In this document: positions 542-17,222 of the stretch, in pieces | Position numbering within the stretch: position 1 is the first letter of the stretch | Layout of the letters: each line of letters begins with the position of its first letter | Assembly: GCA_040752415.1 (NCBI GenBank) | Contig: JBFMGU010000224.1 | Location: 1-17,222, forward strand | Source: Myxococcota bacterium | GTDB lineage: Bacteria > Myxococcota > JACRCW01 | Length of the DNA: 17,222 nt | Direction of reading: 5' to 3' | Notes under the pieces: model-generated | Told to the model about the DNA's origin: nothing | Database searches by the model: none | Seen by the model: only the letters and a program-made list of their open reading frames with translations | Position numbers and translations under genes: made by a program

Positions 542-3500
542 TCAGCCTTCCACGCAGCCGCCGCCAGGCACGCAGACCGAGCCGCACCCGTCGGGGTCAC
601 CGCAAATGCGACAGAGACACTGCGGCGTGCACGGACCGCCACCACCGCAAATCTGGCCCGGTCCACACGCCTGACCATTGCAGCACGGACGGTTCGGGTC
701 ACAGGGCTCGCCGTCGGGCGCGCACTGACCGCCGCCGCCACAGTAGCCCTCGGGTGGGCACGCCTGGCCGTTGCAGCAGGGATGCGTCGGGTCGCATTGG
801 GCGCCGTCGGGAGCGCAGGCTCCACCGTCGGGGAAGCACTGCATGACAGCCGGGTCGCAGCGGTAGCCGGGGCAGCACTCGGCGTCGGCGGCACACGCGC
901 GTGCATCACACTGGTTCTGCGCACAGATGCCGTTGGCGCAGCTGCCACTGCAGCAGGGACGGTTCGGGTCGCACTGCGCTCCGTCGGAGATGCACTCGTT
1001 CTCGCAGATGCCCTGCGGACCGCAGTACCCGTTGCAGCACGGGATGCCGGCCTGGCACTGCGTGCCAATCGGTGTGCACTGGCTCTCGCAGATGCCGTTG
1101 GCGGAACAGGGCTGGTTGTTGCAGCACGGACGGTTGGGATCACACTGCGCTCCGTCGGGCGTGCAGGCGCCGCCGTCGGGGTAGCACTGCTGGGCCGCCT
1201 GATCACAACGGTACCCTGCACAGCACTCCGCGTCCGTGGCGCAGGGACGGTCGCACTGATTCGGCATGCAGGTGCCGTCGGTGCAGTTTCCGCTGCAGCA
1301 CTCGGTTGCCGCGTTGCACGCCTCACCCTCGACGCGACACTGCCCACCGCCGCCACAAGTCCCGTTGGCAGAGCACGACTGGCCGTTGCAGCAGGGACGG
1401 TTGGGATCACACTGCGCACCGTCGGGCGTGCAGCCTCCGCCGTCGGGGAAGCACTGCATGGCGGCCGGGTCGCAGCGATAACCCGCGCAGCAATCCGCGT
1501 CGGTGGCACAGGTCTGCGCGTCGCACTGGTTGGGTGAGCACACGCCGTTGGCGCAGTTCCCGCTGCAGCACTCCGCATTGACGGCGCACGCCATGCCCTC
1601 TGGGCCACACCCGCCGCCGCAAATGCCCTGTGCATCACACGTCAGACCGGCACAGCAGGTTCCATTGATGCACGGCTGACCCGCTTGCGCACAGGCTCCA
1701 CCGTCGGGGAAGCACTGCATGGCGGCCGGGTCGCAGCGATAACCCGCGCAGCAATCCACGTCGGTGGCACAGGTCTGCGCGTCGCACTGGTTGGGTGAGC
1801 ACACGCCGTTGGCGCAGTTCCCGCTGCAGCATTCTGCGTTGACGGCGCACGCCATGCCCTCTGGGCCACACCCGCCGCCGCAAATGCCCTGTGCATCACA
1901 CGTCAGGCCAGCACAGCAGGTTCCATTGATGCACGGCTGACCCGCTTGCGCACAGGCTCCACCGTCGGGGAAGCACTGCATGACAGCGGGGTCGCAGCGA
2001 TAACCGGCGCAACACTCGGCGTCGGTCACGCAGTTCCGACCATCACACTGGTTCTGCGCACAGGTGCCGTTGACGCAGCTGCCACTGCAGCAGGGAAGGT
2101 TCGGGTCGCACTGCGCTCCGTCGGGGATGCACTCGTTCTCACAGACGCCCTGCGGACCGCAGTACCCGTTGCAGCACGGGATGCCGGCCTGGCACTGCGT
2201 GCCAATCGGTGTGCACTGGCTCTCGCAGATGCCGTTGGCGGAACAGGGCTGGTTGTTGCAGCACGGACGGTTCGGATCACACTGCGCTCCGTCGGGCGTG
2301 CAGGCGCCGCCGTCGGGGTAGCACTGCTGGGCCGCCTGATCACAACGGTAGCCCGCGCAGCATTCCGCATCCGTGGCGCAGGGACGGTCGCACTGATTCG
2401 GCATGCAGACCCCGTCGGTGCAGTTTCCGCTGCAGCACTCGGTTGCCGCGTTGCACGCCTCACCCTCGACGCGACACTGCCCACCGCCGCCACAAGTCCC
2501 GTTGGCGGAGCACGGTTGGCCGTTGCAGCAGGGACGGTTGGGGTCACACTGCGCTCCGTCGGGCGTACAGCCTCCGCCGTCGGGGAAGCACTGCATCGCC
2601 GCTGGGTCACAGCGGTAGCCGGCGCAGCACTCGGCATCGGTCACGCAGTTCCGACCATCACATTGGTTCTGCGCACAGGTGCCGTTGGCGCAGCTGCCAC
2701 TGCAGCAGGGACGGTTCGGGTCGCACTGCACGCCGTCGGGGAGGCACTCATTCTCGCAGATACCCTGCGGACCGCAGTAACCGTTGCAGCACGGGATGCC
2801 GGCCTGGCACTGGGTGCCGATCGGGGTGCACTGGCCCTGGCAGATACCGTTGGAGCAGGGCAGCCCGTTGCAGCACGGACGGTTCGGATCACACGACGCG
2901 CCGTCAGGCCGGCAGGTTCCACCGTCGCCGCAGATGCCATTGACGCACGCTCCGCCACAGCACTCGTCGTTCACCGCGCACGGCTCGCCCGTCGGACGGC
3001 AGCCATTGGGCTCGCAGAATCCGTTGGCCGGACACGGCTGCCCGTTGCAGCATGGACGGTTCGGATCGCACTGCGCCCCGTCGGGGGTGCAGGCGCCGCC
3101 GTCCATGCACACGCCGTTGATGCACGCCAGGCCCGGTGCGCACGGAGCCTGCGCGGAGCACGGCTGACCCGGCCCTCCGCACATCACCACCACGCACTGC
3201 CGCGCCGCACCACACATCTCCCCGGCACGACACGTCCCACAATCCAGCACCTGCCCGCAGCCGTCGTCGACGACGCCGCAGGTGGCGCCCATCTGCTGAC
3301 AGGTGCGCGGCTGACACTGCGGCTGCTGACAGATGCCCTGCGTGCACTCCATGCCGGAGCAGCAGTCCGTTGCCGACGCACAGGTCTGCCCGGCGCTCCC
3401 ACACGCGTTGCACGAGGATCCCTGCAGCGGCACACACACCGTGCTCATCCGCGTGGCGCTGCACTCCAGGCGCCCGTCGATCTGGCACCCATCCCGCACC

Positions 3501-6424
3501 GTCACGCAGGGCTGTCCCACGCCCCATCCCTCGTCGACACTCGTGTTGCAGTTGTTGTCGCGCGCGTCGCACAGCTCGCTGTTGCCGGGGCGCACGGAGG
3601 GGTCGGTGTCATCGCAGTCACCGCCAGCGGAGGGCAGGCCGTCGCCGTCGTTGTCGCACTCCGCCGCGGAGGTGTCGGCGCCGGAGCAGTCCTGGTCCAC
3701 GCCGTCGCCGCACAGGTCGCGGGTGTTGGGGTGGATGGAGGGGTTGGTGTCGTCGCAGTCACCGCCCGCGCCCGGACCGGCGAAGTAGCCGTCGCGGTCG
3801 TTGTCGACGGGGTTGTCCGGGAGATCCACCACCATCAGGTGGACCTCCACGCCCGGTCCACGCTGATTGCTCGCGTCGGTGGCAAACACCACGAAGCGGT
3901 ACACGCCCTCCCCGCCCGGCGTCACCTGGAACGCGCGGCCGGGGAAATTCGCCGGCGGAGCAACCTCGACGAGGTCATGCTGCGGCGTGCCCGGAACCGG
4001 CTGCCACGTGAACGAGATCGCGCCCCCTTCGGGGTCCGTGGCGTAGGCCAGGTAGAGCTGGTGGGTGGCGCCGGTGCTGGGGTCCAGCACGCTGGACAGC
4101 GGGGAGACCAGCGGCTGTCCCGGCGGCAGGTCCGCGTTCTGCGCCACGACGAGAATCCGCGCCTCACCCGGCGAAGAATAGTCCGCACCGTCGTAGGCGA
4201 AGCAGGTCACCACGTACTCGCCGGGGGTGGACGCGGTGAACCAGGCGCGGCGTCCGTCGTGCTGGAGGGACGCGGGCTGCGTCACCGTCCAGGAGTAGGT
4301 GAGTCGAGCGGGATCGCCGTCGGGGTCGTGGGCAATGGCGTCCAGGAAGACCATCTCGCCCGCGCGCAACTCCACGGCGCTGGCGGCAACCTCGCAACGC
4401 GGCGGGATGTTGTCGGGCGGGGGCAGGAACGCCACCACCTCGAACGCGTACGTGATGGTGGCCGGCGCGTCCCCCACGGTGGCCAGGACGCGGTAGAGGC
4501 CCGGCTCCTGGGCGGTGACGTCGACGGAATCACCGGCCGGGACCAGCGTGACCGCGCCGTCGGCGCTCCACTGCACGGGCAGCGGGCCGTTCTCCACCAC
4601 CACCGACAACGACGCGGAGACCCCCACCGGCACCGCCACCACGTCGCCGGGAACGCCGAACACCACGGGGCGCGGCACGTCGAACTGCGGGTCAAACGAC
4701 GTGGCCAGTCCGTCGCAGTCGTCGTCGAGACCGTCGCGGTTGACCAGGTCCGTCACCACTACACGCTGGCCACCCAGCGGGGAGCCCGCCACCGAGGAGA
4801 CGCGGTCCGCCTCCTCCGCCGCCACCACCTGCACCACCACCTCCGCGGTGACCTCCAGCTCGGCGCCCGGCGCGGCGTCCACCCGACGAGCCACCACCAC
4901 CGCGCGCTCATTGCGCAGGTAGGAAGCCACCACGTCCAGCGCGCTGCCTTCCACGCTTTCCACGGCCAGCACGCGACCGCTCTCGTCGGCAACGGACAGG
5001 CGCAGGCGTCCACCGGCCTCCGGCACGGCGGAGGAAACCAACGCGTGCATCTCACGGATGCCGTCGGGCCCCGTCAGCGTCACCCGCGTCAACACCTGCA
5101 GCGCCCTTCCCTCGGTGAGGCTCGCCAGCACGTCGGCGGCATTGCTGGCGCCCGGCGGCGCACCCGCCACGCCGGAAGCGGGAATCTGCTGCAGCAAGGG
5201 AACGAGCAACGGCTGCACCAGCACATCCGAGGCGCAGGTGCTGTTGGCGCTGCCGTGGTCGACGTCAATGCTGACCAGCGTGGGGTCGGAGGAGGCCAGG
5301 TACGTGCTGAAGTGCTGCACCTCCGCCACGGCAATCCCCGCCGCGGTGTCGACGGAAACCAGCGGCACGGTCTCCCACCGCCCCGAGGCCTGGTCGAACG
5401 TCTGGACCTGGATGTTGCCCTGCGCCAGCACCGCAGCGGAGACGGGGATCTGGATGTGCACCGGCTGCGCGAACACCAGGCCGGAAGGGCCGAACTCCAC
5501 CGGGATCAGGTCGGTGGCCTGCAGGCCCGCCAGCAACGCTTCCGCGGGCGGCACCAGGTTCGCCACGGCGGAGATGGTGAGGTCCACGTCGCTCTCCAGC
5601 GCTCCTGGCGGAATCACCAGCGAGGTGCCGGCAATCTCGGAGAGCGGCGCGTCCACGCGAACCACGGCGCCGTCGGGGTCGGACGCGCTGACGGTCTGCT
5701 GCGTTTCCACCGTCACGCCCGCCACGCTCACCACGAAGGACTGGTCAATGACCTCGCCATCCAGCACCGCCTGCACGGTGAAGGAATGGGAACCCATCTG
5801 GTTGGCGCTGGGCGTCCAGGTGATGCGGCCGCTGGAATCCACCGCTGCACCCGTCGGAGCAATGGGCAGCGTCCAGGTGGCCACTCCCGAGCGCGAGAGC
5901 GTGGCCTGGTAGCTCCACGGCTGGTCCTGGAGGCCCTGCGGCACGGGGAGGGAGCGGAAGTACAAGCGCGCCGCCGGCTCACCCGAGCTGCTGCTTCCCG
6001 ACGAGGAAGTGGAAGAAGACGACGAGGTGGATGCCGCCCCGCTGGTGCTCCCGGACGTGGCCCCGCCCCCCGACGACGAGGACGCTCCGCTGCCGCTGCC
6101 CGCGCCCCCCGACGACGACGCGCCGCTACCCCCGCCCGAGGACGTAGCCCCATTGCCGCCCGACGAGCTCGACGCGTTGCCGCCCGAGGACGTGGAGCCG
6201 TTCGCCGCGGATGAGCTGGACACCACGCCGCTGCTCGACGACGATGACTGGCCCGAACCACTGCCGCCCGACGAGGAAGAACCCGTCTCCGCGGAGCTGG
6301 AGCCCCCGCCGGTCGACGAGCTGGTTGACGAGGAAGCGGGGTCGCCGCTGCTGGATGACCCGGTACCGCCGGAGCACGCAGCAAGGGACAACAACGTCAT
6401 GACGACGAGCGAGGAACGACGCAT
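542..6424 (-). CDS. Giant cysteine-rich surface lipoprotein (1960 aa): Ser/Gly linker, putative Ig (He_PIG/cadherin-like), ZU5-like, PKD/Ig-like domains, two MopE-type putative metal-binding motifs, long Cys-rich repeat array
   Basis: ATG with GAGGGGAG RBS 6 nt upstream; signal peptide MRRSSLVVMTLLSLAA-C (lipobox LAAC); Ser/Gly tract ~aa18-148; PTGAAVDSSGRITWTP (He_PIG-like); LVIPPGAL..FGPSGLVFAQPV..HFSTY (ZU5-like); DPDGD..LTYSW and DPEGGAISFTW (PKD-like); DCDDTNPSIHP..CGDGVDQDC and DCDDTDPSVRP..CDARDNNC (MopE-type); C-C-CC-C-C modules. Confidence 0.92.
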   Translation of the reverse strand: MRRSSLVVMTLLSLAACSGGTGSSSSGDPASSSTSSSTGGGSSSAETGSSSSGGSGSGQSSSSSSGVVSSSSAANGSTSSGGNASSSSGGNGATSSGGGSGASSSGGAGSGSGASSSSGGGATSGSTSGAASTSSSSSTSSSGSSSSGEPAARLYFRSLPVPQGLQDQPWSYQATLSRSGVATWTLPIAPTGAAVDSSGRITWTPSANQMGSHSFTVQAVLDGEVIDQSFVVSVAGVTVETQQTVSASDPDGAVVRVDAPLSEIAGTSLVIPPGALESDVDLTISAVANLVPPAEALLAGLQATDLIPVEFGPSGLVFAQPVHIQIPVSAAVLAQGNIQVQTFDQASGRWETVPLVSVDTAAGIAVAEVQHFSTYLASSDPTLVSIDVDHGSANSTCASDVLVQPLLVPLLQQIPASGVAGAPPGASNAADVLASLTEGRALQVLTRVTLTGPDGIREMHALVSSAVPEAGGRLRLSVADESGRVLAVESVEGSALDVVASYLRNERAVVVARRVDAAPGAELEVTAEVVVQVVAAEEADRVSSVAGSPLGGQRVVVTDLVNRDGLDDDCDGLATSFDPQFDVPRPVVFGVPGDVVAVPVGVSASLSVVVENGPLPVQWSADGAVTLVPAGDSVDVTAQEPGLYRVLATVGDAPATITYAFEVVAFLPPPDNIPPRCEVAASAVELRAGEMVFLDAIAHDPDGDPARLTYSWTVTQPASLQHDGRRAWFTASTPGEYVVTCFAYDGADYSSPGEARILVVAQNADLPPGQPLVSPLSSVLDPSTGATHQLYLAYATDPEGGAISFTWQPVPGTPQHDLVEVAPPANFPGRAFQVTPGGEGVYRFVVFATDASNQRGPGVEVHLMVVDLPDNPVDNDRDGYFAGPGAGGDCDDTNPSIHPNTRDLCGDGVDQDCSGADTSAAECDNDGDGLPSAGGDCDDTDPSVRPGNSELCDARDNNCNTSVDEGWGVGQPCVTVRDGCQIDGRLECSATRMSTVCVPLQGSSCNACGSAGQTCASATDCCSGMECTQGICQQPQCQPRTCQQMGATCGVVDDGCGQVLDCGTCRAGEMCGAARQCVVVMCGGPGQPCSAQAPCAPGLACINGVCMDGGACTPDGAQCDPNRPCCNGQPCPANGFCEPNGCRPTGEPCAVNDECCGGACVNGICGDGGTCRPDGASCDPNRPCCNGLPCSNGICQGQCTPIGTQCQAGIPCCNGYCGPQGICENECLPDGVQCDPNRPCCSGSCANGTCAQNQCDGRNCVTDAECCAGYRCDPAAMQCFPDGGGCTPDGAQCDPNRPCCNGQPCSANGTCGGGGQCRVEGEACNAATECCSGNCTDGVCMPNQCDRPCATDAECCAGYRCDQAAQQCYPDGGACTPDGAQCDPNRPCCNNQPCSANGICESQCTPIGTQCQAGIPCCNGYCGPQGVCENECIPDGAQCDPNLPCCSGSCVNGTCAQNQCDGRNCVTDAECCAGYRCDPAVMQCFPDGGACAQAGQPCINGTCCAGLTCDAQGICGGGCGPEGMACAVNAECCSGNCANGVCSPNQCDAQTCATDVDCCAGYRCDPAAMQCFPDGGACAQAGQPCINGTCCAGLTCDAQGICGGGCGPEGMACAVNAECCSGNCANGVCSPNQCDAQTCATDADCCAGYRCDPAAMQCFPDGGGCTPDGAQCDPNRPCCNGQSCSANGTCGGGGQCRVEGEACNAATECCSGNCTDGTCMPNQCDRPCATDAECCAGYRCDQAAQQCYPDGGACTPDGAQCDPNRPCCNNQPCSANGICESQCTPIGTQCQAGIPCCNGYCGPQGICENECISDGAQCDPNRPCCSGSCANGICAQNQCDARACAADAECCPGYRCDPAVMQCFPDGGACAPDGAQCDPTHPCCNGQACPPEGYCGGGGQCAPDGEPCDPNRPCCNGQACGPGQICGGGGPCTPQCLCRICGDPDGCGSVCVPGGGCVEG
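647..3091 (-). repeat. Intragenic array of 28 consecutive six-cysteine (C-C-CC-C-C) modules with block duplications
   Basis: Counted from the translation, e.g. CTPDGAQCDPNRPCCNGQPCSANGTC and CRVEGEACNAATECCSGNCTDGVC. DNA blocks 836-1450 and 1973-2587 (615 bp) are near-identical and flank two tandem 261-bp units (1451-1711, 1712-1972). Confidence 0.92.
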
Positions 6425-6661: not shown

Positions 6662-8593
6662 ATGCGCACCTTCCCTCGCCTCGCCTTGCTGTGCGGCCTG
6701 GTCCTTGTCCCCGCGTTTGGCGTGGCCGCCACCCAGGCCATCAAGGCCGCCTTTGTCCCCGACGCCAACCTCGAGCGCGCCAAGGTTCCCGAGCAGTACA
6801 AGTGGAAGCTGGACCCGCTCTTCAAGGACGACGCCGCGTTTGAAGCTGCGCTGTCCGCCATCCCCGGCGAACGCGCGAAGATGCGCGAGCTCAAGGGCAA
6901 GCTCTCCCAACCCGCCGAGCTCAGGAAGTGCCTGGACCTCTACTTCCAGACCCGCCTGGCGCTGAACAAGTTGACCCTCTACGCACACCTCCGCGTGGAC
7001 ACCGACCAGAAGAACGCCGCGCTGCAGGCCATGGACGAGAAGGCGCAGAAGGCCATGGCGGATTTCTCCGCGGACGCTTCGTTCATCCGCCAGGAGGTCC
7101 TCAAGCTGGACGAAGCGGCCATGAAGGACGCGCTAAACAAGGAGCCCGGCCTGGCGCAATACAAGCCGTACATTGACGAGATGCGACGTCGCCGCGCGCG
7201 GGTGTTGGATGAGCAGGCGGAGCGGGTGCTCTCCCTGGCCGGCGACAACCAATGGGCGGAGATCGACCTCAACGAGATTCCCTCCGACCACGAGAAGACC
7301 TTCAAGGCCGCGCTCGCGGACGTCCCGCTGCCCAGGATTGTCGACGAGCAGGGCAAGGAGGTGCAGCTCACGCTGGCCAACTACCCGCGCTTCCGCGGCT
7401 CCAGCGACCGCCGGGTGCGCCAGGACGCCGTGGCCAAGCTGATGGGCACCCTGCGTCAGTACCAGCACATCTTCGCCAGCACGCTCTCCGGTCAGGTGAA
7501 CTTCAACATCTTCCTGGCCCGCTCCCGCGGCTATCCCACGGCGCTGGCCGCGTACCTCGACAAGGACAACATCGACACCGCCGTCTACACGAACCTCATC
7601 CAGGCGGTGAACGCCAACCTTGCGCCGCTGCACCGCTACGTGGCGCTGCGCAAGCAACTCATGAAGCTCCCGGATCTGCACCTCTACGACCTCTACGTCC
7701 CCATGACCGCCGAGACGAAGATGGATTTCACCTACGAGGACGGCGCGCGCATCATCCCGGAAGCTCTGGCCCCGCTGGGTCCCGACTACGTGAAGGTGCT
7801 GAAGGAGGCCCTGGCGCCGGGCTCCGGTTGGGTGGACGTGTTTCCCAACAAGGACAAGGCCAGCGGTGCGTTCTGCGCCAGCGTGTTCGGCATGCACCCG
7901 TTCATGAAGCTCAACCACCTCAATGATTTTGACGGTCTCTCAACGCTGGCGCACGAGCTGGGCCACGCGCTGCACAGCCACCTGTCCATGAAGCACCAGC
8001 CGTACGTGACGTCGAGCTACGTGCCGTTCATCGCGGAGATTGCGTCCACCATCAATGAGAAGCTGCTCAGCGACCACCTCGTGAAGAAGGCCAGGACGCC
8101 GCAGGAGAAGGTTGCCGTGCTGACCAAGCTGGTGGAGTCCATCCGCACCACCATCTACCGGCAGACGCTCTTCGCGGAGTTCGAGCTGGCGGTGCACACC
8201 GCGGCGGAGAACGGCACGCCGTTGACGAGCGAATTCCTGGACAAGACCTACGGCGACCTGGTGCGCAAGTACTACGGTGCGGGCTTCACCGTCGACGAGA
8301 ATGACGGCATGGAGTGGGCGTACATCCCGCACTTCTATTACAAGTACTACGTCTTCGCGTACGCCAACGGCCTCTCCGCCGGCATCGCGCTCGCGGAGAA
8401 GATCCAGACGGGGAAACCCGCCGCGCGCGACGCATACCTGGGCATGCTAAAGGGCGGCTCCTCCAAGCCCCCGCTGGACCTCCTCAAGGGCGCCGGCGTG
8501 GATCTCACCCGTCCCGACGCCGTGGAGGCGGCCGCGCGCCTCATGGACAAGACGTTGGCGGAGCTGGAGAAGCTGCTGGCCGCCAAGAAGTGA
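6662..8593 (+). CDS. pepF: Oligoendopeptidase F (M3B zinc metallopeptidase) with predicted N-terminal signal peptide
   Basis: AAGGAG RBS 5 nt upstream; RAKVPEQYKWKLDPLF N-terminal motif, LHLYDLYVP, KASGAF, zinc motif HELGH (7952-7966), AEIASTINE, RQTLFAEFE, WAYIPHFY..YYVFAYA, LKGGSSKPP..LKGAGVD. Confidence 0.95.
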   Translation: MRTFPRLALLCGLVLVPAFGVAATQAIKAAFVPDANLERAKVPEQYKWKLDPLFKDDAAFEAALSAIPGERAKMRELKGKLSQPAELRKCLDLYFQTRLALNKLTLYAHLRVDTDQKNAALQAMDEKAQKAMADFSADASFIRQEVLKLDEAAMKDALNKEPGLAQYKPYIDEMRRRRARVLDEQAERVLSLAGDNQWAEIDLNEIPSDHEKTFKAALADVPLPRIVDEQGKEVQLTLANYPRFRGSSDRRVRQDAVAKLMGTLRQYQHIFASTLSGQVNFNIFLARSRGYPTALAAYLDKDNIDTAVYTNLIQAVNANLAPLHRYVALRKQLMKLPDLHLYDLYVPMTAETKMDFTYEDGARIIPEALAPLGPDYVKVLKEALAPGSGWVDVFPNKDKASGAFCASVFGMHPFMKLNHLNDFDGLSTLAHELGHALHSHLSMKHQPYVTSSYVPFIAEIASTINEKLLSDHLVKKARTPQEKVAVLTKLVESIRTTIYRQTLFAEFELAVHTAAENGTPLTSEFLDKTYGDLVRKYYGAGFTVDENDGMEWAYIPHFYYKYYVFAYANGLSAGIALAEKIQTGKPAARDAYLGMLKGGSSKPPLDLLKGAGVDLTRPDAVEAAARLMDKTLAELEKLLAAKK

Positions 8594-8745: not shown

Positions 8746-11511
8746 ATGCTCAACGTTCGCACTCTGCACACCTTGGCAGTGACGGCACTCGCACTCTCGT
8801 TGTGGGCATGCCCGACGCAACAGACGGATGACCCCGAGGTGGAAGGCGGCGCCTCGGAAGGCTCCCCGTGCGTGGCGGACACCGACTGCGACGGCATGCT
8901 GTGCATTGGCGGGACGTGCCAGCGACAGGGAGCGAGCACGTCGTCGGGAGGCTCGTCGGGGAACGCGTCCGGGTCGGGCGGGTCCAACACCTCCAGCACC
9001 AGCGGAGGCGGCGGGGACGCTGGCCCCACCGACGCGTACGTGCCCGCGGGATTCATCGAGCTGGACCCCGCCGAGGGACCGCTGGAATTCGGCGCCACAC
9101 GCGTGGGCGCTTCCGTCACGCTGAACGTCCTCGTCACCAACACCGGCAATGCCCCCGCCAGCCTCATCAGCCTGGCCTTCCGCAACAACCCCAGCGGCGA
9201 GTTCACGCTCAGCGTGGTGGGCGGGCAGCCCGCGGTGCTCAACCCCAATGAGCAGATCACCGTCCGCATCACCCACGCCGCCACCGACGCCGCCGCCGAC
9301 CACGCGTTCCTCAGTGTGGTGACCAATGCATCCAATCCGCTCGTCGAGCTGGAGCTGGTGGCGGAGTTCAAGGGTGACCCGGCCCTCTCCATCACGCAGA
9401 CTCCCGACGACACCACCGAGGTGACGACGTGGGCGCTGGATCCCACGCCGGTGGGCACCCCGGTGACGGGTCACCTCTACGTCAAGAACGTGGGCCAGGC
9501 GGACAGCGCGCTCACCATCTCCAGCGTCACGCTGGACCCTCCGGCCTCCGCGCTGTTCAGCGTCGCGGCGGGCCCGTTGCCGCGTGCCATCAGCTCGTGG
9601 TCGGGGTTGTGCGTGGACCTGGGCGGCTGCGACCCCACCGCCACCGAGTGCACCAACGGGCTGTGCCTGGGCAGCGGCTCGGGGGGAACGCTGTATCCGC
9701 GGGACGTCGTCGACGTGGCGCTGACCTTCAACGCGGGCGCCGGTGGCGAGGCCACCACGGAGGTGGTCATCGTCGCCGACGTTGCGGGCACGCCCACCAC
9801 GCGTCGCATCCCGGTGGCGGCGTTGGCGCAGGATTCCCGCCTCAACGTCAGCCCCAATCCCATTGCGTTTGGCAACGTCTTCGTCGGGCGCGACAAGACC
9901 CTGCAGGTCACGTTGGAAAACCCCGCCGACGCCACCAGCGTCCTCAACATCACCGACATTGGCATCCGCTTCACACCGAGCCCGTACGAGGTGCAGCTGG
10001 GTGGCGTGAGCTTCCCGTACCCGCTGACGCCGGGGAGCAGCGTGGTGGTGGCCGTGAAGTTCTCGCCGCAGAACCCGGGCAACTTCGGAAACAGCCTGGC
10101 CATCTCGCGTGAGGGCGGCCTGCCCATCTACGTGCCCATCACCGGCGTGGGCGCCAATGAGCCGGATGCCGACGTGCCCGCCAGCCTGGACTTCGGCGGC
10201 GTGGTGCCCGGCACCTCCAAGACGCTGCCGCTCACCATCGGCAACGTGGGGCTGGGGCCGCTCATCACGTCGCAGGCGGAGGTGACGCCCTCCGGGACGC
10301 CGTTCACGTTCACCCCCGCCACCATCCCCGACGTGGATGCCAACTCCAGCACCCTTGTGCAGGTGACCTACGCGCCTCCGCTCGAGGGCGTCACCGACGT
10401 GGCCACGCTGCTTCTGCAGACCAACGACCCCAATCAGCCGGTCATCCAGGTGCAGCTCTCCGGGCAGGGCGTCATCCCCGCCGCCGAGGTGACGCCGTCG
10501 GGGTTGGACTTTGGCAGCGTGCTGGTGGGCACGGCCAATCCCCCCACGCAGAACATCACCGTGCGCAACACCGGCATGGGGTACCTCAACGTCAACAGCC
10601 CGCTGCGCGTGGTGAACGCGGGTGGCGCGAACATCCCGGAATACACGGTGACGGCGTCACGCACGCTGCCTGCCGACGTGGCCAGCGGGGACGCCATGAC
10701 GCTCACGGTGCGCTTCGCGCCCAGCGCCGCCACGTCCTACAGCGGCAACCTCACCATCACCACCAACGACCCGAACCGCCCGGAGATCACCGTGCCCGTC
10801 ACCGGCAGCGGGAACAACTGCACGCCGCTGCCCAACACCAGTGTCACCGTCGTGAATGGCACGCAGTGCGCGTATCAGTGCGTCCCGGACGCGGTGCAGT
10901 GCGCGGACCAGAGCTGCGTGATTTGCCCGCAGCGCCACGGTGCCACGCCCTCGTGCACGTCGGGGAATGCGTGCCAGTACACCTGCCCCGCCAACAGCGG
11001 TGAGCCGATTGATCCGCCCGGCACGTGCAACAGCGGCACGGCGTACAACCTGGGCAACATCCAGGACGGCAGCACGCAGACCACCAGCAACTTCCGCGTC
11101 TACCCCGGCGGCGACAACGACTGGTTCAAGTTCGTGGCCGCGGACCGTCTGGGTGGCTTCTACGAGGGTGTCCCGTTCCGCGCCTTGCAGGTCTTTGTGC
11201 GGCTCTCCGGCGTGCCGCAGGGCGAGCAGCTGGCGGTCGAGCTGGTGCAGAACACCTGCGGCGGCGGTGGCACGCCGGTGGTGGTGGGCGCGGGACAGAC
11301 GGGAGAGGTGGAGAGTCCCCAATGGTGTGACACGTACAGCGTCAATGACAACGGCACACCGGACAACCCCGACGACGACTACACCGAGCCCATCGACGAC
11401 AGCCGCACGTTCTACGTGCACGTGTACCCGATTGGGGACAGCTACGCGTGCAACAGCTACACGCTGACGGTGGAAGTGGAAGAGCCGTTCTTCAGCGCGT
11501 TCTGCTTCTGA
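8746..11511 (+). CDS. Lipoprotein with five ASH/choice-of-anchor-D (Hydin-like Ig) domains, Cys-rich modules and a C-terminal PPC-like domain (921 aa)
   Basis: Signal MLNVRTLHTLAVTALALSLWA-C; repeated LxFGxVxVG...V/IxNxG motif (LEFGATRVG..VTNTG, IAFGNVFVG, LDFGGVVPG..IGNVG, LDFGSVLVG..VRNTG), two of them ending in TNDPNxP; C-terminal GDNDWFKF...FYVHVY...YTLTV resembles the bacterial pre-peptidase C-terminal domain. Confidence 0.88.
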   Translation: MLNVRTLHTLAVTALALSLWACPTQQTDDPEVEGGASEGSPCVADTDCDGMLCIGGTCQRQGASTSSGGSSGNASGSGGSNTSSTSGGGGDAGPTDAYVPAGFIELDPAEGPLEFGATRVGASVTLNVLVTNTGNAPASLISLAFRNNPSGEFTLSVVGGQPAVLNPNEQITVRITHAATDAAADHAFLSVVTNASNPLVELELVAEFKGDPALSITQTPDDTTEVTTWALDPTPVGTPVTGHLYVKNVGQADSALTISSVTLDPPASALFSVAAGPLPRAISSWSGLCVDLGGCDPTATECTNGLCLGSGSGGTLYPRDVVDVALTFNAGAGGEATTEVVIVADVAGTPTTRRIPVAALAQDSRLNVSPNPIAFGNVFVGRDKTLQVTLENPADATSVLNITDIGIRFTPSPYEVQLGGVSFPYPLTPGSSVVVAVKFSPQNPGNFGNSLAISREGGLPIYVPITGVGANEPDADVPASLDFGGVVPGTSKTLPLTIGNVGLGPLITSQAEVTPSGTPFTFTPATIPDVDANSSTLVQVTYAPPLEGVTDVATLLLQTNDPNQPVIQVQLSGQGVIPAAEVTPSGLDFGSVLVGTANPPTQNITVRNTGMGYLNVNSPLRVVNAGGANIPEYTVTASRTLPADVASGDAMTLTVRFAPSAATSYSGNLTITTNDPNRPEITVPVTGSGNNCTPLPNTSVTVVNGTQCAYQCVPDAVQCADQSCVICPQRHGATPSCTSGNACQYTCPANSGEPIDPPGTCNSGTAYNLGNIQDGSTQTTSNFRVYPGGDNDWFKFVAADRLGGFYEGVPFRALQVFVRLSGVPQGEQLAVELVQNTCGGGGTPVVVGAGQTGEVESPQWCDTYSVNDNGTPDNPDDDYTEPIDDSRTFYVHVYPIGDSYACNSYTLTVEVEEPFFSAFCF

Positions 11512-11869: not shown

Positions 11870-12841
11870 TCAGTACTCGTACAGGTCCTTCGCCACCTTC
11901 ACCACGTCGTCAACCTGGGGGAGGAAGAACTTCTCCAGGCTGGGCGCGTAGGGCACCGGCGTGTCCGGCGCGGTGATGCGACGCAGCGGCGCATCCAGGT
12001 GCTCAAAGCATTCCTCGTTGATGATGGCCATGATCTCGCCCGCGGGACCGCCGGTGCGCGTGGCCTCGTGCAGGATGAGCACCTTGTTGGTCTTCTTCAC
12101 CGTCGCCACGATGGCCTCGCGGTCCATGGGCAGCAGCGTGCGCAGGTCCACCACCTCCACGTTGATACCGTCGGCGGCCAGCTTCTCCGCCGCGTCCAAC
12201 GCCACGTACACCATGGCGCCGTAGGTGATGACGCTGAGGTCGGTGCCCTCTCGCGCCACGCGCGCCTTGCCAATGGGCGTCAGCTCCTCCGTCACCTCGC
12301 CCTTGATGCGACGGTAGAGGAACTTGTGCTCCAGGTAGATGACCGGGTCGTCGTCCTGGATGGAGGCGCGGATGAGACCGTACGCGTCCTGCGCGGTGGC
12401 GGGCGCCACGATCTTCAGCCCCGGGATGTTCATGTAACAGGCCTCCGGGTTCTGCGAATGGTACGGCCCACCGCTCACGCCGCCACCACACGGCCCGCGA
12501 ATGACGATGGGAATGCCCACGCCCCAACGGTACCGGCTCTTGGCCGCGTAGTTGACGATGATGTCGTGCGCGCAGCCCATGAAGTCGATGAACTGCATCT
12601 CCGCCACCGGCCGCATGCCCGTGATCGCGGCGCCAATGGCCGCGCCCACAATCGCGCTCTCGCTGATGGGCGTGTCGACGATGCGGTCCGGACCGAACTC
12701 ATCCAGGAACCCCTTGGTCACGCGGAACGCGCCACCGTAGGTGCCAATGTCCTCACCCAGCATGAACACGCGCGGGTCCCGCACCATCTCCTCGTGCAGT
12801 CCCTTGGTGAGCGCCTCGATATAGGTCATCTGCGCCATCAT
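11870..12841 (-). CDS. 2-oxoacid (branched-chain/pyruvate) dehydrogenase E1 beta subunit
   Basis: GEDIG..GGAFRVTKG, DTPISESAIVG, VAEMQFIDF, GGPYHSQ, EHKFLY, EVVDLRTLLP, LDAP..DTPVPY motifs. TGATGATG junction with the upstream gene; GGAG spacing favours the second ATG (12838) as the start. Confidence 0.95.
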   Translation of the reverse strand: MMAQMTYIEALTKGLHEEMVRDPRVFMLGEDIGTYGGAFRVTKGFLDEFGPDRIVDTPISESAIVGAAIGAAITGMRPVAEMQFIDFMGCAHDIIVNYAAKSRYRWGVGIPIVIRGPCGGGVSGGPYHSQNPEACYMNIPGLKIVAPATAQDAYGLIRASIQDDDPVIYLEHKFLYRRIKGEVTEELTPIGKARVAREGTDLSVITYGAMVYVALDAAEKLAADGINVEVVDLRTLLPMDREAIVATVKKTNKVLILHEATRTGGPAGEIMAIINEECFEHLDAPLRRITAPDTPVPYAPSLEKFFLPQVDDVVKVAKDLYEY

Positions 12842-13938
12842 CAGCTCCGAATCCGGTAGTGCACCCCGGTCCTGGCATCACCCGTCAATTCCATCGCCGC
12901 GTACACGTCGGTCAGTCCGTCGACACCGGTGGCCGGCGCGCGCTTGACCGCTTCCTGCACGGCGTCACGCCACTCCGTCTCCACGCGCTCCTCCACCGCC
13001 TTCAAGCCGTTCTCGTCGAGGATGCCCAGCTCCGCCAGCCGGTGCTCCAGTCGGCACAGCACGTCCTCGTCGGACCGGCGACACCGACGCACGCGCTCCG
13101 CGTAGTCGTCGACCTCGTCGGTGGTGTGGCCGCCGGCGCGGATGGTCTTGCATTCCACCAGCGTTCCCCCGCCACCCGAGCGCGCGCGCTCAAAGGCCCG
13201 CTGGCACGCCAGGTACACCGCTTCCACGTCGCAGCCGTCCACGCTCTCGAACGGGACCCCATACGCCTCCGCGCGCGTGGCCAGGTCTGGGAGGAGGCAG
13301 TCCAGCTCCGTGGCGGTGCCGCCGGCAAAGCCGTTGTTGTTGCACAGCATGACGTAGGGCAGTCCCTGCGCCGCCACCAGGTTGATGGCCTCGTGCCAGG
13401 TGCCGGTGTTCATGACGCCGTCACCAAAGAACCCCAGCGCCACCTGCTTCTGCTTGCGCACGCGGAAGGACAGCGCAATGCCCGCGCCCACCGCGAAGTT
13501 GTCGGCGGTGGGACCGAGCGGCGGCGTGGTGTGGAGCGCCAGGCTGCCCAGGTGCGTATGCCCCGTGCGTCCGCGGCTGGGTGACTGCGCCGCACCCTGG
13601 AACTGCGCCACCACGTCGACGAGCGGCAGGCCCCGCATCAGGTGCGCGCCCAGCTCACGCTGCGTGGGACAGATCCAGTCATCCTTGGCGGTGTGGATCA
13701 CCGAACCCACCACCGCCCCTTCCTGTCCCAGCGCGGCGTGCAGCGGCCCCACCAGCTTCCCCTGCGCAATCCCTTCCGCCAGGTGCTGCTCGACGAGGCG
13801 CGTGCGCACCAGCGCGGCGTGCATGGCCCGCAGCTGCTCCACCGGCACCTGGCTGGGCGTCACGTCGGGAGCACGACCATTCCTGGCCTTGCGCGCACGC
13901 CCCGCGGACTCCGTGATGCTTTCCTTGCTCTTGGCCAT
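12841..13938 (-). CDS. TPP-dependent 2-oxoacid dehydrogenase E1 alpha subunit (second, more diverged copy)
   Basis: LGQEG, PTQRELG, TPP-binding GDG...HEAINL...NNNGFA, VDGCDVEAV, LVECKTIRAGGH; stop codon abuts the beta gene. Confidence 0.9.
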   Translation of the reverse strand: MAKSKESITESAGRARKARNGRAPDVTPSQVPVEQLRAMHAALVRTRLVEQHLAEGIAQGKLVGPLHAALGQEGAVVGSVIHTAKDDWICPTQRELGAHLMRGLPLVDVVAQFQGAAQSPSRGRTGHTHLGSLALHTTPPLGPTADNFAVGAGIALSFRVRKQKQVALGFFGDGVMNTGTWHEAINLVAAQGLPYVMLCNNNGFAGGTATELDCLLPDLATRAEAYGVPFESVDGCDVEAVYLACQRAFERARSGGGGTLVECKTIRAGGHTTDEVDDYAERVRRCRRSDEDVLCRLEHRLAELGILDENGLKAVEERVETEWRDAVQEAVKRAPATGVDGLTDVYAAMELTGDARTGVHYRIRS

Positions 13939-13947
13939 GGGCTCGCC

Positions 13948-14967
13948 TCACATCGGGGGGACGGCGGGACGCTTCTCGCCGGCGTAGACACCGCCCATGG
14001 CGCTCTCGCCACGCGGCTGGGGAACGGTGAGCGCGCGGTCCACGCACTCGGTGAGCAGGTCCTCGATCTTCGCGCGCATCGCCTCGCGCTCGGCGCGGCT
14101 GGGGGCGCCGGGGGTGGCGTCGCAGGTCTGCTCGAAGCGCAGCAAGGGGTCCCGCTGCTTCCACTCCTCGAAGAGCGCGGGCGGGACGTAGCCGGCGTCA
14201 TCATGTTCGGCGTGACCGCGCATGCGGAAGGTCACGGCTTCCAGCACCACCGGGCCCTTCCCCTCCCGGCACAACGCCGCCGCACGACGGGTGGCGCGCA
14301 CCGCCTCCAGCACGTCGTTCCCGTCGAAGCGGATGCCGGTGACGCCGTACGCCTTGGCCTTGAGCACGAACTCCTTGATGGGCGTCTCGCGCTGGTTGGG
14401 CGTGCTGTACGCGTAGCCGTTGTTCTCGATGACGCAGATGAACGGCAGGCGCTTCACGGCCGCCAGGTTCATGGCCTCGTGGAAGTAGCCGTTGGTCTGG
14501 CCGCCGTCGCCAATGTACGTGAGCGCCACCGCGTCCTGGCCGCGCATCTTGATGCTCATGGCCACGCCGGACATCACCGTCATCAGCGCGCCGAGCATGG
14601 AGGTGCAGCACACCAGGCCCTTGCTGAGGTCACCAAAGTGCGTGTTGACGTCGCGGCCCATGGTGGGTCCGGTGGCCTTGGCACAGTACTGCGCCATGAT
14701 GGCCTCCGGGCTGATGCCGCGGACCATGAACACGCCCAGGTTGCGGATCATGGGTCCCACGTAGTCGCTGGGACGGAGCGCATAGGCCGTGCCCACGCTG
14801 CACGCCTCCTGCCCCAGCGAGCGGTACAACCCGCCGACGATCTGGCCCTGCCGGTACAGGCGCGTGAGCCGCTCCTCGAGGAGACGGTTGAGGTTCATGA
14901 AGTAGTAGAGGTCCGCCAGCTCCTCCGGCGTGAACTCCACGGTGGTCTCAGGGGCGGGTTTCACCAC
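13948..14967 (-). CDS. TPP-dependent 2-oxoacid dehydrogenase E1 alpha subunit (canonical copy)
   Basis: GTG start with AAGGAG RBS 7 nt upstream; LYRQG, LGQEA, GDGG...HEAMNLA...ENNGYAYSTP, DGNDVL, FRMRGHAEHDD..Y...W..RDPL. Confidence 0.95.
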   Translation of the reverse strand: MVKPAPETTVEFTPEELADLYYFMNLNRLLEERLTRLYRQGQIVGGLYRSLGQEACSVGTAYALRPSDYVGPMIRNLGVFMVRGISPEAIMAQYCAKATGPTMGRDVNTHFGDLSKGLVCCTSMLGALMTVMSGVAMSIKMRGQDAVALTYIGDGGQTNGYFHEAMNLAAVKRLPFICVIENNGYAYSTPNQRETPIKEFVLKAKAYGVTGIRFDGNDVLEAVRATRRAAALCREGKGPVVLEAVTFRMRGHAEHDDAGYVPPALFEEWKQRDPLLRFEQTCDATPGAPSRAEREAMRAKIEDLLTECVDRALTVPQPRGESAMGGVYAGEKRPAVPPM

Positions 14968-15019
14968 GGGGCAGCTCCTTCCCGAGGGGCGAGGGTCCTA
15001 GGGCACCCCGGGTCCCGCC

Positions 15020-15034
15020 GCAAGGGCCTGGCCA
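15020..15034 (-). promoter_or_regulatory. Candidate sigma-54 -24/-12 promoter for the E1 operon
   Basis: The minus strand reads TGGCCAGGCCCTTGC (TGGC-N7-TTGC), ~50 nt upstream of the GTG start. Confidence 0.35.
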
Positions 15035-15114
15035 CGGGCATGCCCGCGCAGATGCTGCGGAATGACACCATGGGCGCCAATGGCCGCGCCGGAGCGGATC
15101 GTTAGGATTCCGAC

Positions 15115-15120
15115 GAGGAG
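15115..15120 (+). promoter_or_regulatory. Ribosome-binding site for the Pup-like ORF
   Basis: GAGGAG 8 nt upstream of the ATG at 15129. Confidence 0.7.
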
Positions 15121-15128
15121 ATAGGGCC

Positions 15129-15287
15129 ATGAACGTCCATCACGCTCCCAATGCGCCGCAGTCCCGCACCAGCACGTCCCAGGAAGAGCAGGACCTGGCC
15201 GCGCTCCTCAAGGAGATGGCGGACGACGCCCGTCACGCCGCGGCGGAGTACCTGGAGGACAGTCTGGTCCGTGAAGGCGGAGAATAA
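15129..15287 (+). CDS. pup: Pup/UBact-like prokaryotic ubiquitin-like protein (52 aa, C-terminal GGE); absent from the supplied ORF track
   Basis: Hand translation: MNVHHAPNAPQSRTSTSQEEQDLAALLKEMADDARHAAAEYLEDSLVREGGE*. Strong RBS, polar disorder-prone N-terminus, acidic helix-prone C-terminal half, terminal GGE, and 8 nt upstream of a PafA-family gene. Confidence 0.85.
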   Translation: MNVHHAPNAPQSRTSTSQEEQDLAALLKEMADDARHAAAEYLEDSLVREGGE

Positions 15288-15295
15288 GCCGTCCC

Positions 15296-16993
15296 ATGTT
15301 GCAGCGACTGCTGGGCCAGGAAACCGAATACGCCATCCGCTTCACCCCGCGGGATCGGTCACGTCGGCCCAGCAATGAGGTCGTGTACAACGCGCTGTCG
15401 GCTGCCGTGTCGTCGTTGGTGTCCACGCGGCCGGGTGAACGGCAGGCCGTGCGCAAGCAGTTCTTCACCGAGAACGGCGGCGCCTTCTGTTACGAGTTCT
15501 TCCCCTACGCCACCGACGCGGGCCTCATGGAAGGCGCCACGCCGGAATGTCGCGGGCCCGGCCAGCTCCTCCTCTACCAACGCGCGCAGGAAGCGCTCCT
15601 GCTGCAGGCCATCCCCATTGCCGAGCAGACGCTGGCCATGCAGGGCTACGGCGGCTCGCTCGGGCTCATCAAGAACTGTCGCGACGCCCAGGGCCACGTC
15701 TACGGCGCGCAGGAGAACTACGAGGTGGAGATTGCCCGCGGCGTGGGGCTGTGGCTCTACCGCGCGGGGCTGGTGCTGCTCATGCCGTTGCTGGCGCTCA
15801 CCGTGATGCAGATGTGGATGGGCGTGGCGCTGTTCTTGGTGGCGGCGGTGGCGGTGCTGTTGTCCTCGGTGGTGCTGAGCACGGTCATTCCGCCGCTGCG
15901 TCGGGTGCCGCTCATCCGCCAGCTCCGCGATGGCGACGACGATCTGGCCTCCGATCCCACCCTGGGGCGCCTGAGCTGCCTGGTGGAGCGGGTGCTGGGC
16001 TGGCCGGTGATGGCCCCGTTTGCGCTCTTGTTGCGCGCGTTGGCGTTCCGCCGGGTCCGTCGGGACGTGCTGGCGTTCCTGGTGAGCCGGCCCATCATCT
16101 CCGGAACCGGCACGGTGATGCCCGACGGGAGCTTCTGGCTCAGTGAGAAGGGCGTGGCCACGCTCCGCGTGATGCGCAGCAGCGTGAGCCCGGCGGACCG
16201 TCCCATCCTGGACACCGGGAACCTGTTCAAGGACCTGGCGGCGCCGGTGCTGGCGCGGGTGCCACCGCTGTTCAGCCTGTTTTCCCGTCGTCAGCGGCTG
16301 CAGCTGGGGCTCAGCGACTCCAACCGCGCGCAGGTGGCGGAATACCTCAAGGTGGGGACCACGTCGCTGGTGCTGGACATGATGCAGGCGGGCGCGCTGG
16401 CCGACGCACCGCGCTTCCGCGACCCGGTGGCCGCGCTCAAGACCTTCATCTCCGACGCCACGCTGCGCGCCACCGTGCGCACCACGGGCAACCGCGAGGT
16501 CACCGCCCTGCAGGTGCAGCGCTACTACCTGGAGCGGGCCCGCGCCTTCGTGCGCAGCTCCACCACCACGTCGCTGGAAGCGCACGAGATTGTCCGGCAC
16601 TGGGGTCAGGCGCTGGATGCGCTGGAGCAGGATCCCGGCACGCTCGTCGGGAAGATTGACTGGGTGACCAAGCGGCACCTGCTGCAGACGCTGGGGCGGG
16701 ACTCCCCGCATGAGTCGCTCAAGAAGATGGACCTGCGCTACCACGAGCTGGGCGTGGGCTACCTGGACCGGCTGGAGCGCGCGGGCCAGGCGCCGCGTCT
16801 CGTCGACGAGGAGCAGGTGCAGGAAGCCGTGCGCACCCCGCCTTCCGGGACGCCAGCGCGCCTGCGCAGTCGACTCATCCGCATGCTGCCCAACCCGGAT
16901 TCCATGGTGACCGTGTCGTGGAGCAGCGTGCGGGTGGGCGGTCCGGTGGGGGGCCAGGTCATCCGGCTGGACGATCACCGGCCGTGCCCGTGA
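15296..16993 (+). CDS. pafA: Pup ligase/deamidase (PafA/Dop) family protein with an internal hydrophobic, probably transmembrane, insertion (565 aa)
   Basis: Collinear PafA motifs: RLLGQETEY (GhExE), FTENGG, EGATPEC, LIKNCRD..G..YGAQENY, FLVSR..ISGTG, RPILDT, RLQ....DSN......LKVGTTSLVL, ALQVQR.Y, IDWVTKR.L, DLRYHE, PP..T.ARLR, VSW. Uncharged stretch at aa157-200. Confidence 0.88.
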   Translation: MLQRLLGQETEYAIRFTPRDRSRRPSNEVVYNALSAAVSSLVSTRPGERQAVRKQFFTENGGAFCYEFFPYATDAGLMEGATPECRGPGQLLLYQRAQEALLLQAIPIAEQTLAMQGYGGSLGLIKNCRDAQGHVYGAQENYEVEIARGVGLWLYRAGLVLLMPLLALTVMQMWMGVALFLVAAVAVLLSSVVLSTVIPPLRRVPLIRQLRDGDDDLASDPTLGRLSCLVERVLGWPVMAPFALLLRALAFRRVRRDVLAFLVSRPIISGTGTVMPDGSFWLSEKGVATLRVMRSSVSPADRPILDTGNLFKDLAAPVLARVPPLFSLFSRRQRLQLGLSDSNRAQVAEYLKVGTTSLVLDMMQAGALADAPRFRDPVAALKTFISDATLRATVRTTGNREVTALQVQRYYLERARAFVRSSTTTSLEAHEIVRHWGQALDALEQDPGTLVGKIDWVTKRHLLQTLGRDSPHESLKKMDLRYHELGVGYLDRLERAGQAPRLVDEEQVQEAVRTPPSGTPARLRSRLIRMLPNPDSMVTVSWSSVRVGGPVGGQVIRLDDHRPCP

Positions 16994-17096
16994 ATGGGTT
17001 GGCGGGAAATCCCGAGACAAGGAAGTCAGAAGTCAAGCGATGTCGGGGAATCCCCACAGGGAGTCACGAAGCGGGTGAGCGGAAGCAGCGGCGCCC

Positions 17097-17150
17097 TGGA
17101 GTGCGGTGCGAAGCGGATCAAGCGGTCGACGACGTGAAGCACCGCCCTGG
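17097..17150. repeat. Variant REP-like element with expanded loop
   Basis: TGGAGTGCGGTGC...GCACCGCCCTGG shares the GGAGTGCGGT head and ACCGC..TGG tail with the other copies; stem 17103-17109/17139-17145 with a 29-nt loop; downstream of pafA. Confidence 0.55.
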
Positions 17151-17222
17151 ATCGGGCCGTCCAGACGGCGCGGACGTCGTTCAGTCCCCCGGGTGCCTCG
17201 TGCTCTCGACGCTCCCCATGGC

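Follow-up and report, generated by a model that had tools for sequence, protein, structure and literature searches.

A conserved pair of genes for a Pup-like modifier and a membrane-type PafA/Dop-family ligase in a Myxococcota genome with no detected 20S proteasome

In this work, we describe a pair of adjacent genes, encoding a 52-amino-acid Pup-like protein ending in Gly-Gly-Glu and a ligase of the PafA/Dop family with a hydrophobic insert, in a stretch of 17,222 nucleotides from a Myxococcota bacterium. This stretch, called the window throughout, is the whole of contig JBFMGU010000224.1; its 3' end falls inside a repeat, so that the neighbour beyond it is out of view. The two-gene unit, a GGE-terminated tag and its PafA/Dop-family ligase, is real and conserved, and the pair probably constitutes a self-contained Pup-like conjugation module, independent of the proteasome and located at the cytoplasmic face of the inner membrane. 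Direct support comes from the anatomy of the genes, their family membership, the conservation of the pair, the retention of the active site, a predicted complex of the two proteins and the fact that no proteasome genes were found; catalysis, acceptor, membrane topology and physiological role are inferred from these observations. The class has already been predicted in print, and the window pair adds a member to this described kind. The features on which the argument is built are the following, all on the forward strand:

15115..15120, +, Shine-Dalgarno-like word GAGGAG, read from the sequence, 8 nt 5' of the ATG of the modifier gene
15129..15287, +, modifier gene (open reading frame, stop codon included), encoding the 52-amino-acid Pup-like protein that ends in Gly-Gly-Glu
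15180..15284, +, modifier residues 18-52, a conserved C-terminal region with the predicted helical ligase-binding segment and the GGE tail (family motif and complex model)
15296..16993, +, ligase gene (stop codon included), encoding a 565-amino-acid protein of the Pup_ligase family (Pfam PF03136), PafA/Dop-like, with a putative membrane insert
15740..16087, +, insert into the catalytic fold (residues 149-264), preceded by the QENY strand and followed by the FLVSR segment (homologue alignment)
15764..15889, +, uncharged stretch of 42 residues, 157-198, predicted to form a two-helix membrane hairpin (column-wise hydropathy and charge)
15962..16066, +, predicted amphipathic helix (residues 223-251), followed by a conserved basic RRxRR patch (252-256) (alignment and model)

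An earlier note, made from the letters of the window, had described a GGE-terminated frame of 52 amino acids and a PafA-family gene 8 nt apart, and both genes were found to lie exactly so, at 15129..15287 and 15296..16993. The modifier closes with DSLVREGGE and a TAA stop, and the ATG of the ligase follows a spacer of 8 nt (15288-15295); in relatives the gap has a median of about 18 nt, and several pairs overlap. Within 15274-15287, the codons of the GGE tail (GGC GGA GAA) include the word GGAG at a distance of 15 nt from the ATG of the ligase: to judge from this word, the ribosome-binding site of the ligase may coincide with the codons for the modifier C-terminus. A scan of positions 14800-17222 for sigma-70-like promoters and intrinsic terminators was negative.

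Conservation of the pair was evaluated in 86 loci, 80 of which come from metagenomes, four from genomes of the same phylum and one from a member of the Gemmataceae, the window being the last. The N-terminus of the ligase is present in 72 of them, and in 62 of these 72 a same-strand open reading frame (ORF) ending in [GD]GE lies within 450 nt upstream of the ligase: 60 such frames end in GGE, two in DGE and none in GGQ. The conserved upstream ORF expected in the earlier note was thus found, in its Glu-terminated form. GGE closes just 65 of the 9120 stop-terminated frames of at least 30 amino acids in the 86 loci, most of them the modifiers themselves; given this rarity and the recurrence of the upstream frame, the pairing is not due to chance.

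The 58 distinct modifier C-termini share the motif L..VL..I..DA...P..YL.ET.VP.GGE, which the window modifier matches at D, A, Y, L, V and GGE. A hidden Markov model (HMM) of the modifiers, with the window protein itself as a row of the training alignment, finds the window copy in the six-frame translation of the window's own genome (E 2.5e-13) as the sole match below E 0.6. In public databases these proteins are labelled hypothetical, and none of 56 modifiers matches a relevant NCBIfam or Pfam family at E<=10. By every structural sign the modifier would work like Pup, though current models fail to place it in the Pup family. A modifier poor in lysine might have hinted at lysine as the acceptor, but no such depletion is apparent, with K/(K+R) at 0.28 in the modifiers and 0.21 in their ligases.

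The assignment of the ligase to the PafA family, also made in the earlier note, is upheld by the Pfam Pup_ligase model (PF03136), which matches residues 4-545 with E 3.5e-83 and 280.5 bits (cut-off 25) over profile positions 1-440 of 441. Its sequence matches in the PDB are Dop and PafA, with E values from 4.8e-34 (Dop) to 3e-28 (2e-28 for PafA). An AlphaFold model, obtained from an alignment of 28 homologues, has a predicted local distance difference test score (pLDDT) of 90.6 and a predicted template modelling score (pTM) of 0.90. A Foldseek search of the PDB with this model gave only Dop and PafA structures among the ten best matches, at E values between 2.2e-25 and 2.6e-17 and with target-normalised TM scores of 0.69-0.85. 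A quick maximum-likelihood tree (IQ-TREE) was computed from 39 rows: the 8 canonical enzymes, 12 translations of loci and 19 homologues out of the 28 in the alignment. It splits all 31 insert-bearing rows from the 8 canonical ones, on a branch with a support of 100 in the Shimodaira-Hasegawa-like approximate likelihood ratio test (SH-aLRT). Judged by its sequence, the ligase is a member of the PafA/Dop superfamily, neither an orthodox PafA nor a Dop: by analogy it would work like PafA, and by the NCBIfam model it is not a PafA orthologue.

Active-site positions were compared in an alignment, taken from fetched loci, of 6 insert-bearing and 8 canonical PafA/Dop sequences. A single-sequence pattern scan of genome contigs had returned mostly canonical Nitrospirota PafA/Dop loci, which served as comparators and not as relatives, and one insert-type locus only (L009, the Gemmataceae one, whose N-terminus is missing). 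Thirty-two positions are invariant over the 14 enzymes, including the N-terminal E9 and E11, E79, E84, N127 and D130 as well as R265, R302, R334 and D341. The active-site positions are thus retained in the ligase, the roles of the single residues being putative. The conserved Asp that a review names as the proposed catalytic base (PMC3511204) corresponds to a column in which the ligase has an invariant Glu, Glu67, and this invariance was counted in favour of a working conjugating enzyme.

The two proteins are predicted to bind each other. Modelling of the complex by ESMFold2, with both alignments and in three runs, gave an interaction prediction score from aligned errors (ipSAE) of 0.86 in all three, with a best control of 0.00; in the calibration of the tool, which holds only roughly here since custom alignments were used, the ipSAE mark is reached by 116 of 157 solved complexes and by 2 of 215 mismatched pairs. 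The runs have at least 95% of contacts in common, with a pLDDT of the partners of at least 76. In the model, residues 18-48 of the modifier alignment (protein residues 22-52) touch the ligase: the helical part contacts ligase residues 462-498, and the last 15 residues contact residues 11, 13-17, 67-69, 71-72, 75-77, 125, 130-132, 134-137 and 139. The GGE tail is thereby placed, in the prediction, within the active site of the ligase.

These observations are consistent with the following mechanism. The 52-amino-acid protein would be a disordered modifier, whose C-terminal 30 residues or so would occupy a groove of the ligase in helical form, with the Gly-Gly-Glu tail reaching the active site. 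By analogy with PafA, the ligase would activate the terminal Glu by ATP-dependent phosphorylation of its gamma-carboxylate. Transfer of the modifier to an amine would follow, the most likely acceptor being the lysine epsilon-amino group. Since every modifier seen ends in Glu, a Dop-type deamidase, none of which is present, would not be needed. A hydrophobic two-helix hairpin and a basic amphipathic helix, both beside the active-site sheet, would tether the enzyme to the membrane and restrict tagging to membrane or membrane-proximal proteins, and the tag would either regulate its targets or pass them to another machine.

No proteasome genes lie beside the pair, as the earlier note had seen, and the genome-wide search for prcA, prcB, arc and dop is in line with its picture of a minimal cassette. 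The assembly to which the window belongs (11.0 Mb in 520 contigs, 96.8% complete) contains one Pup_ligase gene and one modifier; E. coli, one of the control genomes of the ligase search, gave no Pup_ligase match. In the window's own genome, the only match to the Proteasome family (PF00227) is HslV, which scores 264.9 bits with an equivalog cut-off of 137; profile searches of this 96.8%-complete draft revealed no 20S proteasome beside HslV, and no Mpa/ARC above cut-off, the best match to TIGR03689 reaching 163.7 bits out of the required 504.75. This best match is an AAA ATPase of 446 amino acids, aligned in the AAA domain only. Four more ligase-bearing genomes of the same phylum have one Pup_ligase match and one strong Proteasome-family match of HslV size each; in one of the four a weak second Proteasome-family match, at 31 bits, was also seen. 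Because neither a 20S proteasome nor Mpa/ARC was found, the tag would regulate its targets or hand them to some other machine. As a separate observation, the Gemmataceae genome carrying locus L009 (G406; contigs C1680, C1638 and C968) has three Pup_ligase matches, one of them beside a Proteasome-family gene: canonical and insert-type systems may coexist in this organism.

Handing over could still mean destruction. In canonical systems, as described in PMC2588565 and PMC3511204, Pup is a degradation tag, and the modifier might still be a degradation signal read by a non-proteasomal AAA+ machine, such as membrane-bound FtsH, HslUV or the stand-alone 446-amino-acid AAA ATPase, in a form of membrane-protein quality control. 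HslV is indeed encoded in the genome, a 650-amino-acid open frame of FtsH-like length matches the AAA part only of the Mpa model, and the 446-amino-acid protein is a classical-clade AAA ATPase, whose best models are CDC48, PAN and FtsH, all below their cut-offs. However, no locus shows linkage between the cassette and any of these ATPases, none of which reaches the Mpa/ARC cut-off, and the modifier has only a short, unconserved N-terminal part, the counterpart of the Pup region that feeds the unfoldase. We therefore regard degradation by such a machine as unlikely, and a regulatory or hand-over role, exerted at the membrane, as the preferred reading.

The proposed location at the membrane rests on the insert. 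The earlier note had spoken of a transmembrane insertion in the ligase, and a hydrophobic extra segment of about 115 residues, lying after the QENY strand and before the FLVSR segment, is found in each of the 28 homologues of the alignment and in none of the 8 canonical PafA/Dop sequences. Within it, residues 157-198 are, column by column over the 28 homologues, devoid of any charged residue, with a Kyte-Doolittle peak of 2.75 in the insert, and are flanked by the conserved Arg156 (96% K/R) and by a basic patch at 200-204. A charged loop lies between the hydrophobic stretch and the amphipathic helix 223-251 with conserved charges, and the RRxRR patch follows at 252-256 (R252 93%, R255 100% and R256 86% K/R). 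The AlphaFold model places helices in the insert at 149-197, 221-249 and 252-264. The two catalytic halves have to be on the same side of the membrane as the ATP, so that an even number of spans is expected: in the simplest reading, the insert would form a two-helix hairpin within 157-198 and an interfacial basic helix, the amphipathic helix and the basic patch presumably binding the membrane surface. The insert is peculiar to this type of enzyme: searched alone against 1.84 billion representative proteins, it yields 36 matches at E<=0.001, all at the same position, in proteins of about 550-620 amino acids or fragments, and no other architecture.

An enzyme so placed might use the membrane itself as a substrate. 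The acceptor would then be a membrane amine, phosphatidylethanolamine or another aminolipid, rather than a protein lysine, and the modifier would become lipid-anchored, with an outcome like that of Atg8-PE; if true, this would be bacterial protein lipidation carried out on a glutamine-synthetase-fold enzyme through a gamma-glutamyl linkage. The active-site strand (138-145) leads straight into the insert, and the chain returns to the core at the conserved FLVSR segment, which would bring catalysis near the bilayer; no conserved gene for a protein partner or target stands beside the pair, and the weaker Foldseek matches belong to the glutamine synthetase and gamma-glutamylcysteine ligase families, which ligate small amines. 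On the other hand, a stalk of about 8 helical residues (149-156) separates the core from the first conserved interfacial Arg, and the open sheet cradle of PafA has been described as fit for protein substrates (PMC3511204). We thus consider a lipid acceptor very unlikely, and transfer to lysines of membrane or membrane-proximal proteins remains the preferred reading.

As to the enzyme, the best PDB matches, by sequence and by fold, are Dop, slightly ahead of PafA, and its relatives are publicly annotated as 'PafA2 family' or 'Pup amidohydrolase', which would suit a Dop-like amidase (depupylase or deamidase) or else an inactive scaffold. Such an assignment is highly improbable. As the sole Pup_ligase-family gene of its genome, an amidase would have no conjugates to cleave, and all 62 modifiers already end in Glu, so that deamidation is unnecessary. 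The Dop loop, of about 45 residues in the Nitrospirota Dop-like sequences, is absent from the insert-bearing ligases in the alignment, the NCBIfam PafA score exceeds the Dop score (198.6 vs 171.3 bits), and the active-site positions are kept. Barely credible, finally, is the view of the small ORF as a dedicated substrate or scaffold peptide (its terminal Glu amidated with a small molecule) or as a regulator of the enzyme, instead of a transferable tag: the failure of the modifier to match the Pfam Pup model and a family motif unlike the canonical Pup C-terminus would agree with it, but no conserved tailoring, export or protease genes lie beside the pair, and the modelled binding mirrors that of Pup to PafA, tail in active site.

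A number of findings weigh against the proposed conjugation module. None of the 56 modifiers matches Pfam Pup (PF05639) at E<=10, nor does anything in the six-frame translation of the window's own genome; comparison by hhalign of the modifier profile with four canonical Pups gave a weak match (E 0.0056, probability 6.5%), in which 31 columns are collinear and end at the C-terminus, and the window modifier itself has Arg at position -5, where 49 of 56 modifiers have Pro. The ligase falls below the cut-offs of both NCBIfam equivalog models, with 198.6 bits of 551.3 for PafA (TIGR03686) and 171.3 of 492.3 for Dop (TIGR03688). Gln139 takes the place of His in the canonical (G)CHENY motif and Gln336 that of His in the RRLH motif, and the Asp of the catalytic loop is replaced by Glu67, in a loop which then runs 7 residues longer: the chemistry of the ligase could therefore differ from the canonical one. 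PafA-Pup and Dop-Pup complexes have already been solved, so the score of the predicted complex may reflect likeness to those structures, rather than binding by the window copy. AlphaFold proposes for residues 149-197 one continuous helix, not a hairpin, with 221-249 returning; this arrangement, one helix out and one back, also amounts to two spans. Given the 520 contigs of the draft, the absence of proteasome genes is not proven. Finally, in 10 of the 72 loci the insert-bearing ligase has no recognizable modifier.

These ten loci show no upstream ORF ending in G[EQ] and no match to the modifier HMM on either strand within the locus. Eight of them (L105, L108, L109, L110, L113, L116, L131 and L140) form a low-identity group, 32-34% identical and with a GC content of 51-57%; the other two are L118 and L062. 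The canonical His of the CHENY motif is kept in seven of the eight, L140 featuring GCQENY. The quick tree contained six of the ten loci, L118 and five from the low-identity group, and all six fall inside the insert clade. A conserved stretch, which looks non-coding, precedes the ligase in most low-identity loci (not L131 and L140). Frames ending in PDGS, PDGT or SDGP, lying over the ligase start in modifier-less loci, were considered as a variant modifier and rejected as an artefact: according to the DNA alignment, the PDGS-type ending arises when the conserved N-terminal codons of the ligase are read in another frame, whose stop falls within CTG ATG.

No conserved third gene emerged from all-against-all BLAST clustering of 2808 open frames from the 86 loci. 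The largest non-ligase clusters were discarded as partners, being antisense or shifted frames of the ligase itself, as was a low-complexity cluster rich in R, G and P, which came from closely related loci. The remaining clusters, also rejected, are confined to at most 12 loci of one subgroup, and correspond to an aminotransferase, a NUDIX protein and three unannotated frames. The neighbours of the pair vary from locus to locus, and include a GH57 enzyme, SecDF/YajC, a pair of ECF (extracytoplasmic function) sigma and anti-sigma factors, and a PilZ-DUF4388 protein with DnaK.

Within its phylum, the ligase was found in 5 of 401 sampled genomes, that of the window included. Four of the five ligase-bearing genomes are among the 20 that were sampled from a single family, and the only other genome belonging to the window's own family yielded no ligase. 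Relatives are encoded by 346 metagenome stretches, and the best 119 database matches other than the protein itself are all about 540-720 amino acids long and 48-56% identical to the window ligase. By their public names, relatives belong to Myxococcota, Acidobacteriota and Planctomycetota: the sources of ligases include Chondromyces crocatus, Paraliomyxa miuraensis, Nannocystaceae, Thermoanaerobaculia and Vicinamibacteria, and Planctomycetaceae are among those of modifiers. A neighbouring housekeeping gene has its nearest named relative, at 78% identity, in an uncultivated 'Deltaproteobacteria bacterium'. The GC content at third codon positions (GC3) of the ligase gene is 0.91, equal to that of neighbouring genes, which marks the gene as no recent arrival.

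The flanks of the pair agree with what the earlier note had reported. To the left, a divergent minus-strand operon (11870-14967) contains tandem genes of the E1_dh family (E1 alpha-like, 339 and 365 amino acids), followed by one transketolase-like E1 beta gene; such doubling of the alpha subunit within one operon is unusual. Farther left, a gene for a 921-amino-acid protein, built of Ig-like repeats of the ASH/HYDIN/Cep192 type (8746-11511, +), adjoins one for oligopeptidase F of family M3 (6662-8593). A minus-strand ORF of 1960 amino acids (542-6424) has only weak matches, to Big_9, ZU5 and Cys-rich (conotoxin-like) models; to judge from the sequence, its product is probably a giant secreted or surface protein.

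To the right, the 229 nt from 16994 to 17222 contain no credible ORF and are part of a dispersed palindromic repeat, the REP-like (repetitive extragenic palindromic) element expected there. This repeat gives 104 high-scoring segment pairs by blastn within its own genome, self included; paired matches in opposite orientation occur on the same contigs, and several copies lie at contig ends. The pattern suggests a palindromic element, similar to REP sequences or to miniature inverted-repeat transposable elements (MITEs), of about 250-300 nt. Since several copies are found at contig ends, the element breaks the assembly, at the end of the window as well. Contig C82 was considered as a continuation, having an exact end overlap of 127 nt, but the join is untrustworthy, the overlap being a multi-copy palindromic repeat.

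What is known of pupylation concerns almost exclusively its use in Actinobacteria as a signal for delivery to the proteasome. As no proteasome was found in the genome of the window, a Pup-like tag must here have some other use. The enzymes of the clade, at least some hundreds of sequences, would be membrane-tethered and work singly; with two genes only and modifiers already ending in Glu, the system is minimal and could be rebuilt in a heterologous host.

Among the known systems, UBact, found in Gram-negative phyla, features a Pup-like modifier beside PafA/Dop homologues, in loci which include proteasome and ATPase genes and encode soluble enzymes. It has in common with the window pair the occurrence of a Pup-like modifier outside Actinobacteria; no UBact model was matched here. 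Corynebacterium performs pupylation without a 20S proteasome, with a non-degradative or unfoldase-dependent role, and keeps soluble PafA, Dop and the ARC ATPase. The absence of the 20S is shared; in contrast, neither Dop nor ARC was found in the genome of the window, and the ligase is predicted to be membrane-bound.

The actinobacterial Pup-proteasome system, composed of Pup, PafA, Dop, Mpa/ARC and the 20S PrcAB, relies on enzymes of the same family and fold, and its Pup is likewise small, ends in Gly-Gly-Glu and has a helical segment docking in a groove, as predicted for the modifier. The expected chemistry, a gamma-glutamyl phosphate followed by an isopeptide, would also be shared (PMC3511204). 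The differences are several: a single enzyme, predicted to be membrane-anchored, in place of PafA and Dop; neither the 20S nor Mpa found in the genome; a modifier not matched by Pfam Pup; a ligase set apart from the sampled PafA/Dop enzymes in the quick tree; and Gln for His at two conserved sites and Glu for the catalytic-loop Asp.

Closest is the class predicted computationally by Iyer, Burroughs and Aravind in 2008 in Plesiocystis pacifica and Rhodopirellula baltica (PMC2588565), which the earlier note had cited correctly. The prediction concerned Pup genes next to a Pup ligase, without proteasome linkage, the ligase having four transmembrane segments inserted after core strand 4, and a possible regulatory role on membrane-associated proteins was proposed (PMC2588565). 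The earlier note knew of no experimental characterisation, and we too found no experimental study of the membrane-anchored type in the full-text literature, where subscription journals are largely uncovered. The window pair resembles that class in that a Pup-like gene with a C-terminal G[EQ] adjoins a PafA-family gene, a hydrophobic insertion directly follows the core strand with the (H/Q)ENY motif, and proteasome genes are unlinked (PMC2588565). It differs in that, instead of four transmembrane segments, it has one uncharged stretch of 42 residues, enough for two spans at most, and an amphipathic basic helix. As to the linked membrane-protein gene reported in 2008, no neighbour is conserved over the 86 loci, and the window itself ends 229 nt past the ligase, inside the repeat. 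To the 2008 prediction the present analysis adds a modifier motif missed by current Pfam and NCBIfam models, with no GGQ endings among the modifiers seen; the absence of a conserved third gene; a group of ligases without a recognizable modifier nearby; active-site substitutions specific to the clade; and a topology that would fit two spans rather than four.

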